Shown piece by piece: positions 1,126-31,830 of a stretch of DNA of 64,000 nucleotides; within the stretch, counting starts at the first letter, position 1; every line of letters begins with the position of its first letter. The position numbers were made by a program, and so were the translations under genes. The notes under the pieces are model-generated. The model saw nothing but the letters and a program-made list of their open reading frames with translations. It made no database searches and had not been told where the DNA came from. The DNA comes from a bacterium (GTDB taxonomy: Bacteria; JACRDZ01; JAQUKH01): NCBI GenBank assembly GCA_028719205.1, contig JAQUKH010000002.1:1-64000 (forward strand). The letters are read 5' to 3'.

Positions 1126-1359
1126 ATGCCAATATATGAGTTTTGCTGCCAGGATTGCCAGAAAGAATTTGAGGAATTTTTTCATTCTTCTTTTCAAAAG
1201 AAGAATATTGCCTGTGTCAAATGCGGAAGTTCCAATGTCAGGAAAAAAGTCTCGCTGTTTGGCGTGGCGGGAAAAAACGGAGATTCCGGGGAATTCGCTA
1301 CTTCTTCGGGAGGCGGGTGCGGCAGTTGTGCTACGCATAATTGCGGAAGCTGTCATTAA
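1126..1359 (+). CDS. FmdB-family zinc-ribbon protein
   Basis: MPIYEFCCQDC...CVKCGS and C-terminal CGSC..HNCGSC; AGGAG RBS. Confidence 0.9.
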   Translation: MPIYEFCCQDCQKEFEEFFHSSFQKKNIACVKCGSSNVRKKVSLFGVAGKNGDSGEFATSSGGGCGSCATHNCGSCH

Positions 1360-4325: not shown

Positions 4326-5048
4326 ATGATCTTAAGACATTTATGGAAAAGCGGATTAGTGGCAGTTGTGCTTGTGTTTTATTCTGTGTCCCCGATTAAT
4401 GCCCAATCAAATAATGTGGGAGCTTTTATTGATCAGGTTATAGGGGCGTATGGCGGCCGGAAAAATATTTTATCAATTAAGTCGTATCGTCTGGAAGCAA
4501 CTATGCAAACTCATGTCCAAAAAGGTATCGGTAAAGTAACAAGAGTTGTTGAAGGGCCGCTGCGGTTGAAGGTTCTTATTCGCTATCCATCCGATATGGA
4601 GATCCGTCTGCTTGACGGAGAAAAATCCTTGAGAGGTTTTGCCCCTGATAAATTAGCTTCTGTTGAAGGCCCATTGCGTGATTCGATGGTACTTCAGGCG
4701 GCGCGGGCCGATATTCCATGGATCCTGGATAATATGAGATCAAAGATACGTCTCACAAAGGCAAAAGACGGGCAATCTGTCCTGGAAATTCCGCTTGGAA
4801 AAGGAATGTATATGAATGCTTTTGTAGACGCAAAAACACATTTAGTAACGCGAGCCGAGACTGTATCGGAAGGAGAAATGGAACTTCAGTTCGCGGCAGA
4901 CTATTCGGATTTTCGGAAAGTTGATAATGTATTATTCCCTTTTCACGAGGAAAACTATGCTTCAGGTTCGCACACGGCAACTACAAAGGTGGATAGTATC
5001 AAACTCAATCCGTCGGGGGAAGCTCTGGAACTGCCGATCCCGAAATAA
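4326..5048 (+). CDS. Exported hypothetical protein (LolA-like/lipoprotein-sorting fold suspected)
   Basis: Signal peptide; A.GG..N..SI and YSDFRKVDNVLFPF motifs; AGGAGG RBS. Confidence 0.7.
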   Translation: MILRHLWKSGLVAVVLVFYSVSPINAQSNNVGAFIDQVIGAYGGRKNILSIKSYRLEATMQTHVQKGIGKVTRVVEGPLRLKVLIRYPSDMEIRLLDGEKSLRGFAPDKLASVEGPLRDSMVLQAARADIPWILDNMRSKIRLTKAKDGQSVLEIPLGKGMYMNAFVDAKTHLVTRAETVSEGEMELQFAADYSDFRKVDNVLFPFHEENYASGSHTATTKVDSIKLNPSGEALELPIPK

Positions 5049-26629: not shown

Positions 26630-27364
26630 TTATTTATTTTGCAGGGACAAAGGCAGTTCAAGTTTATTTTTTTCTAAAAGTGTTTTGTTCAATAGCATAT
26701 CTTTCGTAGTTCCATCGGCCTGAACACGTCCATCGTTTAAAATTATGCATCTTTCGCATACATCCATTATCAAATCCAGGTCGTGGGACACAATAATTTT
26801 TGTATGATGAAATTTTCTTAATAGATTTATGATTTCCCGCCGCGAGTGGTTGTCAAGAAATGAAGACGGTTCGTCCATGACAAGTATATCCGGCTCCATT
26901 GCAAGAATAGTGGCGATGGAAACAGCCCGTTTTTGCCCAAGGGAAAGATGGTGAGACGGACGGCTCTTTAATTCAAGGCACCCCACGATCCTTAGAGATT
27001 CTTCTACTTTTATTTCTACAGCCTCAGGAGAGAGCCCTAAATTTAAAGGGCCGAAAGCCACATCATCAAATACCGTCGGCATAAACAGCTGGTCATCGGG
27101 ATTTTGGAAGACAAGGCCGACATGACGGCGGATCTCCGTTTTTGTTTTTTGTGTTACAGGCGTGCCCCCGATATTGAATGAACCGGATGTTGGCAGGAGA
27201 AATCCGTTCAATTGCAGGATAAGTGTCGATTTCCCCGCGCCGTTAGGGCCGATAATACCCACAGATTCACCATGGTGTATTTCAAAAGATATGCCGTTAA
27301 TGGCTTTTGTTCCGTCAGGATAGGAAAAATGGATATTTTCAGCTTTGATAATATGATGGCTCAT
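26630..27364 (-). CDS. cbiO: ECF transporter ATPase (CbiO/NikO)
   Basis: GPNGAGKST, FQNPDDQLF, DVAFGP.N, MDEP. Confidence 0.92.
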   Translation of the reverse strand: MSHHIIKAENIHFSYPDGTKAINGISFEIHHGESVGIIGPNGAGKSTLILQLNGFLLPTSGSFNIGGTPVTQKTKTEIRRHVGLVFQNPDDQLFMPTVFDDVAFGPLNLGLSPEAVEIKVEESLRIVGCLELKSRPSHHLSLGQKRAVSIATILAMEPDILVMDEPSSFLDNHSRREIINLLRKFHHTKIIVSHDLDLIMDVCERCIILNDGRVQADGTTKDMLLNKTLLEKNKLELPLSLQNK

Positions 27365-27372
27365 CCAACGAA

Positions 27373-27468
27373 CTCCCCCTACCCCCTCTTTAAAAAAAGA
27401 GGGGGTTAAGAATAAAATTTTAACCTCCCCTTTGTCCCCTCCTTGGCAAGGAGGGGATTAGGGGTGGT
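27373..27468. repeat. Composite REP-like palindromic element
   Basis: ACCCCCTCTTT/AAAGAGGGGGT (27381-27406) and TCCCCTCCTTG/CAAGGAGGGGA (27435-27457) inside ACCTCCCCT/AGGGGTGGT. Confidence 0.75.
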
Positions 27469-27469
27469 A

Positions 27470-28270
27470 TTAAATAAACATTTTCCCAATAAATTGACTT
27501 AATGGGAATAACCTTAAAAAGATGAAAAAACCGCTTAAAAGAATAATATATAAAAAATCTTTTAATAAAAATCTGCTTTTTTTAAACAAATTGATCTTGC
27601 CGTTAAATCCGCGCGCGCACATTGCCTGATATATTCTTTCTGAGCGGTCAATTGTCCTTAAAAGAAGGCTTCCAAGAATGTTCCCGGCAGTGAGGATCTC
27701 ATAGCCCTTTTTCCCGAAAGAACGAAGTTCCCTGGCGTTATTTGTCCGGACAACCTCTTCCCCCAGGATAAAGATATAACGGTAGATAAACATAAGTTGT
27801 AAAATAAAAATATTGGGCATACCTAAATTTTCCATAGCCATACAAATACCGGGAAAAGAAGTGGTTGCGATAAGAATTAACGCTGAACTAATCGTCAGAA
27901 TAAATTTTATTATTATCGAAAGGTAGGATATCCAGCCGCCGCTAATGCCTATGCCAAATAATGAAATCAGGATTTTTCTGTCCAGCATGGGATTAAATAT
28001 TCCTACCATAAGGGCAAAAGGGGAAACGACTATTAATTTTTTCAATATGATCTTTATCGGAATATCCGCTAACGCGACCAGGATGACGGGAAATATTAAA
28101 AATGGAATAAGCCCTGAAATCTCATGTTTTGGGAAAGAGATAACCATAAAAATAAAAACCAGGGTAACAATAAATTTAGCCCTCGGATCCAGGCGATGGA
28201 TAAAGGTATCCTTGTAAGACAGATAATCCAGATATCCTAAATCAAAAAATTCAGATTGATTGAATGACAT
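27470..28270 (-). CDS. cbiQ: ECF transporter T component (CbiQ/NikQ)
   Basis: HRLDPRAK, YRYIF, RSERIYQAM.ARGF.G. Confidence 0.93.
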   Translation of the reverse strand: MSFNQSEFFDLGYLDYLSYKDTFIHRLDPRAKFIVTLVFIFMVISFPKHEISGLIPFLIFPVILVALADIPIKIILKKLIVVSPFALMVGIFNPMLDRKILISLFGIGISGGWISYLSIIIKFILTISSALILIATTSFPGICMAMENLGMPNIFILQLMFIYRYIFILGEEVVRTNNARELRSFGKKGYEILTAGNILGSLLLRTIDRSERIYQAMCARGFNGKINLFKKSRFLLKDFLYIILLSGFFIFLRLFPLSQFIGKMFI

Positions 28271-28298
28271 TAATCCTCATATATATTTTTGTGTTGAA

Positions 28299-28333
28299 CC
28301 TCTTACCCTCCTTTATTTACGGAGGGTAAGAGG
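28299..28333. other. Perfect 13-bp stem-loop inside the transporter operon
   Basis: CCTCTTACCCTCC-N9-GGAGGGTAAGAGG; no U tract. Confidence 0.7.
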
Positions 28334-28351
28334 CCAATTAATCCTGGTGGC

Positions 28352-29404
28352 TTAATATGTATTTGTTAAGCTGCGTTTACGAAAGAATTTTATCACAGAA
28401 CCGATCAAAATAGTTATTCCTAATGTTAATATCCCGCCTAGAATTCCCGCAATACTGGTACCTCCTGAAACAGCCGGCCAGGCTTCTTTTTCCGATTCGG
28501 CTTTTTCAGGCTCCGCCATTTCCGGTTTTTTAAAACCATAATCGGGAAGAAAGGCCGTTTTTTCCTGTAATTTAGACAGGGTTTTGTGGAATATGTCTTC
28601 TTTTGGAGGCAATTCTTCTCTGCCTGATATTTTCCCCATAGACCATTCAAGGCCGTCCGGATGGGTGGAGGCGAACCATGAAAGCATGCCTCCTGTAATT
28701 AAGGCTAAAACACTCATAGCTACAAGGACTTTTTTCAGGTTTAAAAGTGTGTTATTTGATTTATTATCAGAATAAAATAAATCAGGCTGGATATTTTTAA
28801 CATAAATAACTATAGTTCCGGTTACAATTCCTTCTACAACGGCAATAAGCAGATGAATGGGAAGCATTATACTGGTAAAAGTTAAAAAGGGCAATTCGGT
28901 TATACCGGAAAAAACGGTTTCAAGAACAACGCTGAAAGCTCCCATTTCCAATCCGAGAATAACTCCCAGGATTGAACCTATCATTATCTTTTTATTACTG
29001 TTGTTGCTGCCGGTTATTAATTTATAAACCAGAGGGTAGGCGATAAAACAGGGATAAATACCCAAATTCCATATATTACATCCTAACGCAAGCAGCCCCC
29101 CGTCCGCAAAAAATAATGCCTGGATAAATAACACGGAGGCAATGGAAATAAAGGCCGCCCATGGTCCCAGAACGATCGTAAGAAGCAGACCGCCTCCGAT
29201 GTGACCGCTTGAACCTGTCGCGGGGATAGTGAAATTAATCATTTGTCCCGCAAATATAAAAGCACCCATTACTCCCATTAGAGGGATTATTTTATCATTA
29301 AATTCATTTTTTAGCTTTCGGGCACAATAGCTGATGGTTGCGATTGTCCCGGCCCAAAAACTTAAACCAACAGTTGGTGAAAGAAGCGCGTCTGCCATAT
29401 GCAT
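28352..29404 (-). CDS. cbiM: ECF substrate component CbiM/NikM fused to a PDGLE (NikN-like) domain
   Basis: N-terminal MHMAD metal-binding motif, GSSGH, ADGG..ALG.N, ASTHPDGLE. Confidence 0.92.
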   Translation of the reverse strand: MHMADALLSPTVGLSFWAGTIATISYCARKLKNEFNDKIIPLMGVMGAFIFAGQMINFTIPATGSSGHIGGGLLLTIVLGPWAAFISIASVLFIQALFFADGGLLALGCNIWNLGIYPCFIAYPLVYKLITGSNNSNKKIMIGSILGVILGLEMGAFSVVLETVFSGITELPFLTFTSIMLPIHLLIAVVEGIVTGTIVIYVKNIQPDLFYSDNKSNNTLLNLKKVLVAMSVLALITGGMLSWFASTHPDGLEWSMGKISGREELPPKEDIFHKTLSKLQEKTAFLPDYGFKKPEMAEPEKAESEKEAWPAVSGGTSIAGILGGILTLGITILIGSVIKFFRKRSLTNTY

Positions 29405-29418
29405 AAGAATTCTCCTTA

Positions 29419-29472
29419 GTTTAAGCCGTTTAAACAGTTTAAACAGTTTAAACCGATTGAACCGTTTAAGCG
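29419..29472. repeat. Six tandem 9-bp repeats (consensus GTTTAAACM)
   Basis: GTTTAAGCC GTTTAAACA GTTTAAACA GTTTAAACC GATTGAACC GTTTAAGCG. Confidence 0.9.
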
Positions 29473-29476
29473 GTTA

Positions 29477-30238
29477 TTAATATTTTAAGGTTATACCTGC
29501 AAGAATTGAATTATCTGTTTCCGCGCTATTGAGCCCAAACTTAACGCCAAAATCTATGTCAATATTCTCCTTTATGGAATAAATCAATCCGCCTAAAATA
29601 AACGCGGGATTAATGTCTGATGTTTTATCCGGATTCTTCTCAATACCAATATTGCCTACAGCTTTTAGGTTTTTCATTATTTCGATTTCAGAGGCAAGTG
29701 ACGCATGCCATATATTTTCTTCTTCATCTGCTTTGTTTTCATTCCGGATATATCCTAAATTAAAATGAAAAGCGCCTGATTCTATTCCTTTTGTTGTAAT
29801 GAAGAAAACACTATATGTTGCTTTTCCGGATCCTAATCCTTTTTCATTATCTCCTGTCGGAAAGCTGATGCCGGGTTTTAAAGCAAAACTTAAACCATTT
29901 TTTTCATAAAAAGCATGTTTTACTTCCAGTGATACATCAGCTAGTCCGTTTTCATCAGAAGTTACTACATTATCTTCTTTCAGTTCATTCCATTGATTTG
30001 GCATCCCGATTACAATATCTGTATTATCATTTATACCATAACATAATCCAATTCCTATTTCAGCGCTGGTTTCCCTGATTGTTTCTTCTTTGTTAGAGCT
30101 AAATTCAGAATTGATCTCAATCTGTAAGTGCCCTTTCCCCTGTGTGCCGGTATCGTCGGTAATTAAAGGGTGGGCCGCAAAGGCCTGCCCGCAAAATAAA
30201 ATCAGCATAGAAACCATTACAAATAAATTCTTCCTCAT
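29477..30238 (-). CDS. Putative outer-membrane channel (MetA-pathway/'transporter' barrel family)
   Basis: Signal peptide AFA|AHPLITDDTGT, G..D..L..K, PTGD...GLGSG, ends GITLKY. Confidence 0.75.
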   Translation of the reverse strand: MRKNLFVMVSMLILFCGQAFAAHPLITDDTGTQGKGHLQIEINSEFSSNKEETIRETSAEIGIGLCYGINDNTDIVIGMPNQWNELKEDNVVTSDENGLADVSLEVKHAFYEKNGLSFALKPGISFPTGDNEKGLGSGKATYSVFFITTKGIESGAFHFNLGYIRNENKADEEENIWHASLASEIEIMKNLKAVGNIGIEKNPDKTSDINPAFILGGLIYSIKENIDIDFGVKFGLNSAETDNSILAGITLKY

Positions 30239-30266
30239 AATTTTTCTCCAAATTATTTTTTTGATT

Positions 30267-30340
30267 GGTTTCCAGTTGACTGGTTAGCCTGAATTTTTTA
30301 AATAAGTGATTTTTTGCCGCCTCCGGTTGGCCCGGCAGGC
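30267..30340 (-). ncRNA. Candidate cis-acting RNA: two related hairpins after the YezD-type gene
   Basis: Minus strand GCCT G CCGG GCCAA CCGG AGGC (30319-30340) and GGCTAA CCAG TCAA CTGG AAACC (30267-30289). Confidence 0.45.
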
Positions 30341-30531
30341 TATTTACATTTCTTCATAGTATTCTCCTTGCCGAACCTCATTCTTTCAATTTTATTAACC
30401 TGGACAATCTCCGAATCATGAATTACAATTTCAACACTTCCAAATTTTAGAGATTTAATTGCAGGCAATATTTGAGAGAAAACAAACTCATCTCTTTTAT
30501 TTAAATATGAATTTTCTTTATTGGTTTCCAT
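30340..30531 (-). CDS. YezD/DUF2292-family small protein
   Basis: I..AIKSLKFGSVEIVIHDSEIVQVNKIERMRF. Confidence 0.85.
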   Translation of the reverse strand: METNKENSYLNKRDEFVFSQILPAIKSLKFGSVEIVIHDSEIVQVNKIERMRFGKENTMKKCK

Positions 30532-30548
30532 TATTTACATTCTGCATC

Positions 30549-30575
30549 ATGCTACATTTTTTATAATCGTGTTAC
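30549..30575. promoter_or_regulatory. Candidate NikR operator of the Ni-uptake operon
   Basis: ATGCTAC-N13-GTGTTAC; similar in inverted orientation to 31055-31081. Confidence 0.65.
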
Positions 30576-30583
30576 TATAGGGC

Positions 30584-30616
30584 AAAAAAATAACTCGCAA
30601 TTTTAACGCGAGTTAA
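30584..30616 (-). terminator. Intrinsic terminator after nikR
   Basis: Minus strand TAACTCGC...GCGAGTTA followed by T7. Confidence 0.6.
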
Positions 30617-30620
30617 ATTT

Positions 30621-31037
30621 CTAAATAAGTTCTTTCCCTGTGCTTGACATGCTCAAGGAAACATGCTTGACGCCTCTTGCTGATTTTAAAGTGTCAGTTA
30701 GTTTTTGCACTTCTTTTGGATTACCTTTAATTGCGATTAATTCCAGACAATTGTGATGGTCAAGATGTATGTGCTGTGTGGAAATAATTATATTTTGAAA
30801 ATCATGCTGTATATCAACAATTTTACCAATAAGCTCTCTTTTGTGATGATCGTAAATAAGAGTTATCGCGCCGGCAACTTCTTTATCTTCCAGCCATTCT
30901 TTTTTTACGAGTTCCTCACGGATCAGGTTTCTAATGGCCTCCGACCGGTTGGTGTATCTTTTTCCTCGTATTAACCGGTCAAATTTATCAGATAATTCTT
31001 TTTCCAGTGAAATTCCAAACCGAACCAAGTCAGTCAT
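30621..31037 (-). CDS. nikR: Nickel-responsive regulator NikR
   Basis: RFGISL, NRSEAIR, YDHH, QH, HIHLDHHNCLE. Start ATG 31037 with GGAG RBS. Confidence 0.96.
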   Translation of the reverse strand: MTDLVRFGISLEKELSDKFDRLIRGKRYTNRSEAIRNLIREELVKKEWLEDKEVAGAITLIYDHHKRELIGKIVDIQHDFQNIIISTQHIHLDHHNCLELIAIKGNPKEVQKLTDTLKSARGVKHVSLSMSSTGKELI

Positions 31038-31054
31038 ATGATCTCCATACAAGG

Positions 31055-31081
31055 ATACTACGATTATAAAAATTGTAACAC
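31055..31081. promoter_or_regulatory. Candidate NikR autoregulatory operator
   Basis: ATACTAC-N13-GTAACAC just upstream of nikR. Confidence 0.6.
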
Positions 31082-31155
31082 GATTATTTTTTTTGTCAAG
31101 GGATTTTTTTAATGATATAATTATAAAAACCTAAACTTTAGAGGGAGATAAAAAA

Positions 31156-31830
31156 ATGCATATTGTTCCAGCTATTTTGACCGATAAAAAAGAAGAGCTT
31201 TTTAAAATGATCCGCCAGGCGGAAAAATTTTGCCCGATGAGCCAGATCGATATCATGGACGGGAAGTTTGTTCCGACCTTGAGCGTTTCGCCTTATGATC
31301 TTTCTGAAATAAGAACTTCAATGAAACTGGAGATACATTTGATGGTGGAAAGGCCTATTGCCTTATTAACTGCTTTTAAAGAAGCGGGGGCAGGGAGGAT
31401 TATTTTTCACTTTGAATCGAAAGATGATCCGTGGGATATTATTAAGGAGACCAGGGCGTTAAATCTGGAGGTTGGGATTGCGGTCAACCCGGAGACGACA
31501 GTACGTGAAATAGAAGATTTTTTATTGAGTGTTGATCAGGTATTGGTAATGACCGTAAAACCCGGATATTACGGAAGCCCGTTTTTGCCGGAGATGATGG
31601 GAAAGATCGCGGAATTGAAAAAGAAAAAAGGAAAATTTCTCGTATCAGTTGACGGCGGTATCAATATCAATAATGTTTCAGACATGAAAGACGCGGGCGT
31701 GGATCTTTCATGTGTTGGGAGCGGGATCTTTAAAGGAAATCCGGAAGAAAATTATAAAAAATTGGTAGATAAAATTTCACAACCGGTTTTTATGTGCCCC
31801 AAAATAGCAAACAACATCGTTAATCAGTAA
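31156..31830 (+). CDS. rpe: Ribulose-phosphate 3-epimerase
   Basis: IDIMDG.FVP, HLMV, MTV.PG..G, VDGGIN, GS.IF. Confidence 0.92.
   Translation: MHIVPAILTDKKEELFKMIRQAEKFCPMSQIDIMDGKFVPTLSVSPYDLSEIRTSMKLEIHLMVERPIALLTAFKEAGAGRIIFHFESKDDPWDIIKETRALNLEVGIAVNPETTVREIEDFLLSVDQVLVMTVKPGYYGSPFLPEMMGKIAELKKKKGKFLVSVDGGININNVSDMKDAGVDLSCVGSGIFKGNPEENYKKLVDKISQPVFMCPKIANNIVNQ

Follow-up and report, generated by a model that had tools for sequence, protein, structure and literature searches.

Two small hairpins found directly behind a yezD (DUF2292) gene are, judged by sequence comparison, two copies of a widespread RNA motif of the sense strand, spaced as its tandem copies usually are; this motif is coupled to the DUF2292/YezD/OscA family of small proteins. 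The gene is located in the first 64,000 nucleotides (nt) of contig JAQUKH010000002.1 from the bacterial assembly GCA_028719205.1 (the window, meaning the whole stretch that was analysed), between nikR and genes for an outer-membrane β-barrel and a nickel/cobalt importer. The evidence tips towards YezD being a factor that would bind the hairpin and turn on the genes downstream. The strand on which the motif is found, its covariation, its adjacency to and co-occurrence with yezD, and the structures that compete with it in other lineages all favour such a YezD–RNA switch.

Hairpin 1 (GCCT-G-CCGG-GCCAA-CCGG-AGGC, 30340..30319) begins on the G of the TAG stop codon of yezD. It is made from an outer stem, GCC/GGC, an unpaired TG on the 5' side, an inner stem, CCGG/CCGG, that closes a 5-nt loop, and a bulged A on the 3' side. 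Hairpin 2 (GGCTAA-CCAG-TCAA-CTGG-AAACC, 30289..30267) has the inner stem CCAG/CTGG with the loop TCAA, an unpaired AA on the 5' side, a bulged A on the 3' side and a weak outer stem, GGCT/AACC, with one mismatch. The hairpins are offset from the stop codon by 0 and 51 nt, respectively, and their inner stems start 52 nt apart. A sequence-only reading of the window had let the first hairpin start at the final base of the stop codon, with the second after a gap of 29 nt (30318..30290), and had noted a shared core of CCRG, a loop ending in CAA and CYGGA, with a change from G-C to A-T; the positions, the core and the change are all borne out by the sequence.

Neither hairpin is an intrinsic terminator, since no U-run stands behind either of them: the bases behind hairpin 1 are GGCAAAAAA, and those behind hairpin 2 are AAACCAAUC. 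A consensus scan likewise called no intrinsic terminator on the minus strand of 30239..30339. A genomic repeat element was also considered and rejected, as hairpin 1 has one match at up to three mismatches in the 2.59-Mb genome and is thus unique; the core of hairpin 2 has one further match, at two mismatches. In the minimum free energy fold of the window, the two hairpins also pair with each other over a long range (GCCUG/CAGGC); this pairing was set aside because it is not kept in the related genome G003, described below.

An exhaustive HMMER search returned 450 DUF2292 proteins at E ≤ 0.001, from which 30 diverse members were aligned (alignment A1). Eighty DUF2292 loci were drawn from a species-level genome collection, representing Nitrospirota, Acidobacteriota, Methylococcaceae, Latescibacterota, Planctomycetota, Omnitrophota, Paenibacillus and others, and were searched for the hairpin with the loose regular expression CCRG-N3-6-CYGG. 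It was found no more than 300 nt downstream of the DUF2292 gene in 68 of the 80 loci, and its density in the downstream region was 4.4 per kb, compared to 0.74 elsewhere on the same strand and 0.98 on the reverse strand.

The motif consists of an outer stem of 3–6 pairs, an unpaired GA on the 5' side, the inner stem CCRG/CYGG, a 4-nt loop, a bulged A on the 3' side and the 3' strand of the outer stem. It is a simple unit of 10 pairs, three unpaired conserved bases and a tetraloop. Among 83 copies, the unpaired 5' bases are G in 63 and A in 78, and the bulged 3' A is present in 75. The tetraloop is mostly A-C-N-A, in which the third base is free, and at times TCAA, as in hairpin 2; a 5-nt loop like that of hairpin 1 is found in a minority of copies. 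Both hairpins in the window have the 3' A, but in place of the consensus GA they have TG (hairpin 1) and AA (hairpin 2). By a strict pattern, 26 distinct loci contain at least two motif copies, with a median start-to-start spacing of 51–53.5 nt, for which the spacing in the window is typical. The first copy is CCAG and the second CCGG in 19 of these loci, both are CCGG in 6, and the order seen in the window, CCGG followed by CCAG, is found in one.

The selecting pattern leaves out the three outer pairs that adjoin the internal loop, and yet these covary. Pair 6:26 is GC in 29 copies, AU in 27 and GU in 9; pair 7:25 is CG in 62, UA in 9 and UG in 3; and pair 8:24 is CG in 35, UA in 20 and UG in 19. 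The inner pair 13:20, for which the pattern allows four combinations, is GC in 53 copies, AU in 26 and GU in 3, with one mismatch. Overall, 80.1% of the cells are paired, a level that 0 of 500 column shuffles attained (72.1% in the shuffles), and sliding the 3' partners by 1–3 columns reduces the paired cells to 27–47%. In the three outer pairs, G.U outnumbers A.C by 32 to 12 in the genome loci and by 19 to 2 in a second, metagenomic set. This asymmetry fits an RNA made from the sense strand, not a DNA palindrome or an antisense RNA.

The second set was searched with a covariance model, R1, built from 84 motif copies, none of them from the window genome. This independent test set contained 80 metagenomic yezD loci (320,757 bases, both strands), 78 of which have at least 120 nt of downstream sequence. 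R1 matched at E < 0.01 on the same strand and within 500 nt downstream in 58 of these 78 loci, with two matches in 19. All 77 matches at E < 0.01 fall within this downstream sense zone of up to 500 nt, and 100 of the 101 matches at E ≤ 1 are on the sense strand. Several of the 20 loci without a match show visible variants, such as TCAG/CTGA stems. Paired cells amount to 80.2%, compared to 70.0% in shuffles (0/500), in an alignment that was fitted to R1 and is biased its way. A conserved, covarying hairpin behind DUF2292 homologues, the lack of which would have counted as a refutation according to the sequence-only reading, is thus found on the sense strand in two independent samples.

In the window itself, searched on both strands with filters off, R1 ranked hairpin 2 first (E 4.2e-4) and hairpin 1 second (E 0.22). 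Hairpin 2 is also the top match in the entire 2.59-Mb assembly (23.3 bits, E 0.017); ranks 2–3 are in coding frames, and rank 4 is at E 9.3.

Sixty relatives were drawn for comparison, among them five other genomes from the phylum of the window genome. One of these, G003, belongs to a different family and has nikR, a yezD that is 60% identical, the spacer and a similar barrel gene. Its spacer retains the core of hairpin 1 (GCC.GCCGG ... CCGGAGGC and an A-run) and a 16-nt core of hairpin 2 that is identical to that in the window, with differences in the bases that surround both cores. The counterpart of hairpin 1 is the top R1 match in the G003 genome, at 28.4 bits. Over 30159..30518, a related metagenome contig of 920 nt from run X4 shows 33 substitutions and 15 gap letters relative to the window, but none of these falls in 30267..30375, which includes both hairpins, the linker and the last yezD codons. 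In the stretch of 28 nt that separates hairpin 2 from the start codon, this contig has four substitutions and about 10 deleted letters. In a contig from run X3, a C-G pair in the inner stem of hairpin 2 becomes U.G on the sense strand, although at a depth of 3.2 this may be an error.

Two other exact 12-mer matches are present in G003, one of which (L013) is coding, while the other (L017/L233) is a genuine second intergenic copy. This copy, on contig C116 at about 4356..4387, scores 27.6 bits and is far from yezD; it comes after a gene for a phosphate/sulphate-type binding protein, downstream of porin-like fragments, and before a toxin–antitoxin pair. The yezD gene of G003 (L004, 1076..1110) stops about 10 codons early, and the DNA past the stop still aligns with the last codons of the window gene, which suggests that the C-terminal tail of YezD is dispensable or was recently truncated.

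The motif and yezD tend to occur in the same genomes, although the genomes counted here are kin and do not make independent samples. Of 61 genomes around the window genome, 4 have DUF2292. At E ≤ 0.05, intergenic R1 matches in this set were found in G000 and G003 only; the other 17 matches, in 13 genomes without DUF2292, are all inside open frames of at least 165 amino acids (aa). Among 41 Paenibacillaceae genomes, R1 matched at E ≤ 0.01 in 28 of the 36 that have yezD and in none of the five that lack it. In 101 genomes from a Bacillales-level order, matches at E ≤ 0.02 were present in 10 of the 46 with yezD. In nine of these ten genomes, inspection showed that they are intergenic or have terminator tails; the match in the tenth is at a contig end. 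Three matches were found in the 55 genomes of this order without yezD, all in open frames of at least 306 aa. Altogether, none of 117 examined genomes without yezD has an intergenic R1 match.

The motif stands behind yezD irrespective of the neighbouring genes. The largest open reading frame (ORF) of at least 150 aa that starts within 700 nt of yezD was sought in the 80 loci and found in 71. It belongs to Porin_O_P in 39 of these and to Alginate_exp in 6, and the rest encode other porins, TonB receptors and sulphate-type binding proteins. The statement in the sequence-only reading that DUF2292 often leads transporter operons needs to be adjusted, as an outer-membrane porin next door is commoner than a transporter proper. 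Upstream of yezD, 10 of 10 scanned ORFs of about 152 aa encode Rrf2 regulators. The order in the window, nikR–yezD–hairpins–barrel, parallels Rrf2–yezD–porin and is thus the usual architecture with a different regulator. In a Nitrospirota chromosome (G061), a DsrC-like gene and a 417-aa ORF without a Pfam match flank a second motif copy (L117), equal in score to the first and situated about 4 kb past the yezD locus (L028/L114) in the downstream direction.

The setting of the motif in other lineages hints at what it might do. In one Paenibacillus genome, the motif is present behind yezD itself and in several leaders that do not adjoin yezD: ahead of the gene for a sulphate-type binding protein; between those for an SsuA-like binding protein and its ATPase; ahead of a flavin mononucleotide (FMN) reductase gene; ahead of an HPr-like gene that is followed by a major facilitator superfamily transporter gene; and ahead of an aldo-keto reductase gene. 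Together they look like a sulphur-scavenging set. In Paenibacillaceae, 24 of 35 R1 matches are followed by a stem and a T-run, the 5' arm of which starts at motif positions 19–32; two of the 35 are probable coding false positives. The hairpin and the terminator are mutually exclusive, because the end of the inner stem, the bulged A and the 3' strand of the outer stem are also needed for the 5' arm of the terminator. The FMN reductase leader is one in which motif and terminator overlap. Many of the Paenibacillaceae motif–terminator leaders (L241–L269, L120, L122, L130) also have an ATYGGAATWA-like box about 3–12 nt upstream, which presumably resembles the CymR operator; if so, these genes would be subject to sulphur control at two levels.

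Gram-negative loci show a different arrangement. Of the 51 loci in which the start could be scored, 46 have the start codon 22–39 nt (mostly 26–33) past the last hairpin. The ground state is predicted to be a long helix, with a fold z of −2.6 to −3.9, in which the 3' half of the motif pairs with codons 2–5 of the porin gene, so that the loop contains the Shine-Dalgarno sequence and the stem contains the AUG. In 92 distinct loci, the duplex between the motif 3' half and the porin start has a mean energy of −13.59 kcal/mol, compared to −10.74 kcal/mol when permuted (standard deviation of means 0.35), and it reaches −12 kcal/mol or lower in 58 of the 92, where 33.6 are expected. Many unrelated porin ORFs (L034–L107, L139–L214) open with similar codons, ATG-AGR-...-CCGG-TTG. 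Pairing with the hairpin upstream, and not the signal peptide alone, seems to constrain these gene starts. An anti-Shine-Dalgarno idea was tried, but forcing the motif raised the accessibility of the Shine-Dalgarno sequence in 8 and lowered it in 12 of 47 loci, and the idea was replaced by the helix that sequesters the start codon. On either platform, a factor that stabilizes the motif would switch the downstream gene on.

YezD is the leading candidate for this factor. The YezD of the window matches Pfam PF10055 with 54.3 bits (gathering cut-off 22), which is its sole Pfam domain. Against NCBIfam NF033785 (OscA, “sulfur starvation response protein”) it reaches 37 bits, below the cut-off of 85, and is thus a homologue and not an equivalog. 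The AlphaFold2 monomer, predicted from the family alignment, has a helix at 12–26 and a β-hairpin at 31–49, with a mean predicted local distance difference test score of 76. G31, H38, Q44, E49 and R52 are invariant in the 30-sequence alignment. A search of PDB sequences with the family profile had no matches at E ≤ 1, Foldseek against the PDB gave nothing below E 2.4, and the best Z in a wide VIA search was 2.9. Matches in the ESM Atlas were DUF2292 clusters only (scores 0.83–0.85), a homodimer prediction scored 0.40 against a mark of 0.42, and a protein homologue search with the window YezD returned three near-identical proteins only.

Nevertheless, the description of DUF2292 as uncharacterised in the sequence-only reading needs a qualifier, as one of its members is OscA, which belongs to the response to sulphur starvation but has no known mechanism. 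Pseudomonas corrugata becomes sensitive to chromate when oscA is inactivated (Viti et al. 2009, cited in PMC2996968). According to PMC2996968, oscA adjoins a sulphate ATP-binding cassette (ABC) transporter, oscA and sbp are induced by chromate, and the function of OscA is unknown; PMC10433965 lists oscA among the sulphur-homeostasis genes. The motif leaders at sulphonate and sulphate uptake genes in one Paenibacillus genome agree with the role in sulphur starvation described in PMC2996968. The OscA of P. corrugata strain 28 and the YezD of the window thus belong to the same family, and OscA is likewise a small protein that heads an uptake cluster, for sulphate, and is induced along with sbp. 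However, the window YezD heads a nickel/cobalt uptake cluster linked to NikR, and the passages on OscA in PMC2996968 that were consulted do not mention an RNA partner.

The current model is that the motif would serve as the RNA operator of YezD. YezD would be made from the first cistron and then bind and stabilize the hairpin. In its unbound state, the 3' half of the hairpin would instead form an intrinsic terminator in Paenibacillaceae and other Bacillales; in Gram-negative porin loci, it would enter a long helix in which the Shine-Dalgarno sequence and start codon of the next gene are hidden. Binding would thereby switch the downstream uptake genes on. In the window, where the unit stands behind nikR and before an outer-membrane channel and nikMN-Q-O, expression of nickel uptake would need prior synthesis of YezD. 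We infer that YezD is the binding factor, that binding means activation, and that this is the output in the window; gene order is what suggests that the unit may add a layer of control on top of NikR.

It is conceivable, if somewhat doubtful, that YezD/OscA proteins make up a new family of very small RNA-binding activators that, together with their cognate hairpin, form a portable “gate” cassette. Such a cassette could serve downstream of any sensor that acts on the promoter, be it an Rrf2/CymR-type repressor for sulphur or NikR for nickel. The tiny first product would then have to build up ahead of synthesis of the costly outer-membrane channel and importer, and the gate would work by antitermination in Firmicutes and by opening of the start-codon sequestor in Gram-negatives.

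A number of observations speak against YezD as an RNA-binding activator. The family is only mildly basic, with a median isoelectric point of 8.2 (9.2 for the window YezD), and the AlphaFold2 monomer matches no known RNA-binding fold. R1 misses the motif in 8 of the 36 and in 36 of the 46 genomes that have yezD, although this is due in part to stricter filters, to stem variants such as TCAG/CTGA and to the short length of R1. Co-occurrence may mirror a shared regulon instead of direct contact, and kin genomes overstate independence. The crude forced-motif test of Shine-Dalgarno accessibility had no consistent effect. In the window, the hairpins deviate at the usually conserved 5' GA, hairpin 1 reaches only 13.6 bits, and the spacer shows neither a terminator nor a sequestor helix. 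The duplex with the ORF start is −5.9 kcal/mol in the window and −8.7 kcal/mol in G003, compared to a median of −14.85 kcal/mol elsewhere, and the local fold in the window is −8.9 kcal/mol, with a z of −1.1. The window hairpins are therefore best described as recognisable but divergent copies, the output of which cannot be read from the sequence; stabilization of the mRNA or direct help in translation is possible. The proposal in the sequence-only reading that the protein binds the hairpins to antiterminate or control translation is the best supported of those considered and fits the competition with terminators and start codons in other lineages, but in the window it meets with no terminator or sequestor.

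An alternative, for which the chances are rather small, is that the hairpin is a riboswitch for a metabolite or ion, which it would bind without YezD and possibly as two hairpins in tandem, and that yezD is no more than a frequent neighbour within the regulon. The platforms are indeed riboswitch-like, with an overlapping terminator in 24 of 35 cases or a sequestor helix, and the small tandem hairpins recall the layout of guanidine-II. In one Paenibacillus genome, the motif heads leaders that are far from yezD; against this stands the lack of any intergenic match in the 117 genomes without yezD. The very simple unit, with a free third base in its loop, also argues against a riboswitch, and the presence of one motif at both a sulphur regulon and a NikR/nickel operon is hard to square with a single ligand. 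Finally, the comparison with Rfam suggested by the sequence-only reading matched no relevant family. A search of 29000..31500 of the window with Rfam 15 found no guanidine-II, NiCo or other riboswitch family at E ≤ 10, and in 27 related loci there was no match to the motif (20 loci at the gathering score and 10 loci at E ≤ 5).

It is no more probable that another conserved factor, such as an RNase or a protein other than YezD, recognises the hairpins, or that they simply protect or process the mRNA, with an unrelated role of YezD in uptake. Against it stand the sequence-specific conservation across phyla of the unpaired GA, the bulged A and the A-C-N-A loop, the mutual exclusion with terminators and sequestors elsewhere, and the lack of intergenic copies in the examined genomes without yezD. 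The attraction of this explanation is in the window, where the hairpins are directly at the yezD stop codon with no competing structure in sight and where hairpin 2 is predicted to form alone, with a P of ~0.96 in a model ensemble. Hairpins at the 5' end are known to stabilise porin mRNAs.

That the inverted repeats are operators in double-stranded DNA, for NikR here and for Rrf2 elsewhere, is very improbable. In its favour are the palindromic CCRG..CYGG cores and, in many loci, the presence of a regulator gene just upstream. However, 100 of 101 matches on the sense strand, the excess of G.U over A.C and the asymmetry of the unpaired bases are not what DNA operators would give. The site is inside the operon, behind its first gene, and the same motif is found with NikR, with Rrf2 and in Paenibacillaceae leaders.

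Chance resemblance in an AT-rich spacer is scarcely credible: the fold of the 107-nt spacer stretch is not significant (−20.8 kcal/mol, z −1.49; 15 of 200 shuffles were equal or better) and hairpin 1 reaches only E 0.22, but the hairpins are the top two window matches, and hairpin 2 the top genome match, of a model built elsewhere, they are kept in G003 and related contigs, and their spacing is that of tandem copies.

If YezD does bind the hairpin, the closest parallels are found among protein-dependent antiterminators. In the hut operon of Bacillus subtilis, the regulator HutP is encoded by the first gene, its RNA target is right behind, and binding prevents formation of a terminator. Expression of the remaining genes thus depends on the product of the first, as would be the case in the YezD unit. 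HutP differs in being larger, hexameric and histidine-dependent and in recognising spaced UAG triplets, whereas the target of YezD would be a hairpin; YezD has no relation to HutP in sequence or fold, and the output of the YezD unit in Gram-negative loci would be translational. The ANTAR regulators EutV, AmiR and NasR bind dual hairpins with hexaloops and thereby stabilise an antiterminator. Here, too, there are two small tandem hairpins, the second of which competes with a terminator. However, YezD lacks an ANTAR domain, as Pfam finds DUF2292 only, and the motif has tetraloops and a GA/A internal loop. The resemblance to HutP and ANTAR is in the working logic only.

Guanidine-II (mini-ykkC) riboswitches are made from two similar mini-hairpins with ACGR loops and a variable linker, the second hairpin being near the ribosome-binding site. 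The tandem arrangement, the tetraloops and the closeness of the second hairpin to the ribosome-binding site are shared with the YezD-linked motif. In contrast, the third loop base of the motif is free, the loops in the window are GCCAA and TCAA, Rfam gave no match even at a permissive E, and the motif is intergenic only in examined genomes that have yezD.

The ssu operon of B. subtilis, which contains sulphonate uptake genes, is reportedly regulated at leader termination by an unidentified factor (van der Ploeg et al. 2001). The motif likewise stands before ssu-like genes in one Paenibacillus genome, including the FMN reductase leader with its overlapping terminator. Literature searches on DUF2292, yezD with riboswitch, oscA and ssuBACD/CymR, which did not extend to supplementary motif catalogues, found no RNA element linked to the family. 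The motif thus has no counterpart in Rfam 15, judged from the window region and 27 related loci, or in the literature that was searched.

DUF2292/YezD/OscA is a widespread family of small proteins, one member of which has a phenotype (sulphur starvation, chromate resistance) with no known mechanism. The tie to the motif turns this family of unknown function into a directly testable protein–RNA switch and supplies a new RNA motif for annotation. It would also add a post-transcriptional layer to the uptake of sulphate and sulphonate and, here, of nickel, for which textbooks credit repressors alone. If the cassette model is true, it would provide a mechanism for a domain of unknown function across many phyla and might name the unidentified factor at sulphur-regulated leader terminators. 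A protein-independent riboswitch, should that turn out to be correct, would be of comparable interest.

The features of the locus are collected in Table 1. The genome (2.59 Mb) has a single DUF2292 copy, and the spacer between yezD and the barrel gene is 101 nt long. The energy-coupling factor (ECF)-type nickel/cobalt importer genes nikMN-Q-O span 26630..29404 on the minus strand, behind the barrel gene.

Table 1. Features of the yezD locus, listed in the direction of transcription.
Feature	Coordinates	Strand	Basis
nikR, 143 aa, regulator gene 5' of the unit	30621..31052	(-)	Pfam NikR_C E 1.3e-31, RHH_1 E 7.7e-07
Terminator-like hairpin and T-run 3' of nikR	30591..30615	(-)	Consensus scan: 9-bp stem, then TTTTTTT
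Block 5' of yezD kept in G003, candidate promoter/operator	30550..30577	(-)	Pairwise alignment window against G003
yezD/DUF2292 gene, 63 aa	30340..30531	(-)	Pfam PF10055 E 9.6e-15; stop TAG 30342..30340
Hairpin 1, divergent motif copy	30319..30340	(-)	Second-ranked R1 match in window, 13.6 bits, E 0.22
A-rich 29-nt linker joining the hairpins	30290..30318	(-)	Sequence; no change in run X4 contig
Hairpin 2, motif copy	30267..30289	(-)	Top R1 match in window (23.3 bits, E 4.2e-4) and in genome
Spacer from hairpin 2 to ATG	30239..30266	(-)	ATG 33 nt past inner stem; GGAG at 30249..30246
Outer-membrane β-barrel gene, 253 aa, first gene 3' of the hairpins	29477..30238	(-)	Pfam Phenol_MetA_deg E 4.9e-21
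CbiM+PDGLE fusion (nikMN)	29404..28352	(-)	Pfam CbiM E 6.1e-59, PDGLE E 2e-29
CbiQ	28270..27470	(-)	Pfam CbiQ E 4e-31
ABC ATPase	27364..26630	(-)	Pfam ABC_tran E 2e-29

In a separate part of the assembly (L110; G000 contig C53, about 1340..1351), the sequence is G+C-rich and contains a run of N, unlike the AT-rich window, and may represent assembly contamination.

The conserved block between the nikR terminator and yezD (about 1255..1285 of L004 in G003) contains two GTARCAY words, 20 nt apart, that flank an A-run. The words are direct and not inverted repeats, and the block may be the promoter of the yezD operon or a NikR site. Further downstream, where Rfam gave weak palindromic matches only, on both strands, the spacer between the barrel gene and nikMN (29405..29476, minus strand) is built from a 9-nt unit around the palindrome GTTTAAAC, repeated in tandem about five times up to the GGAG of nikMN.

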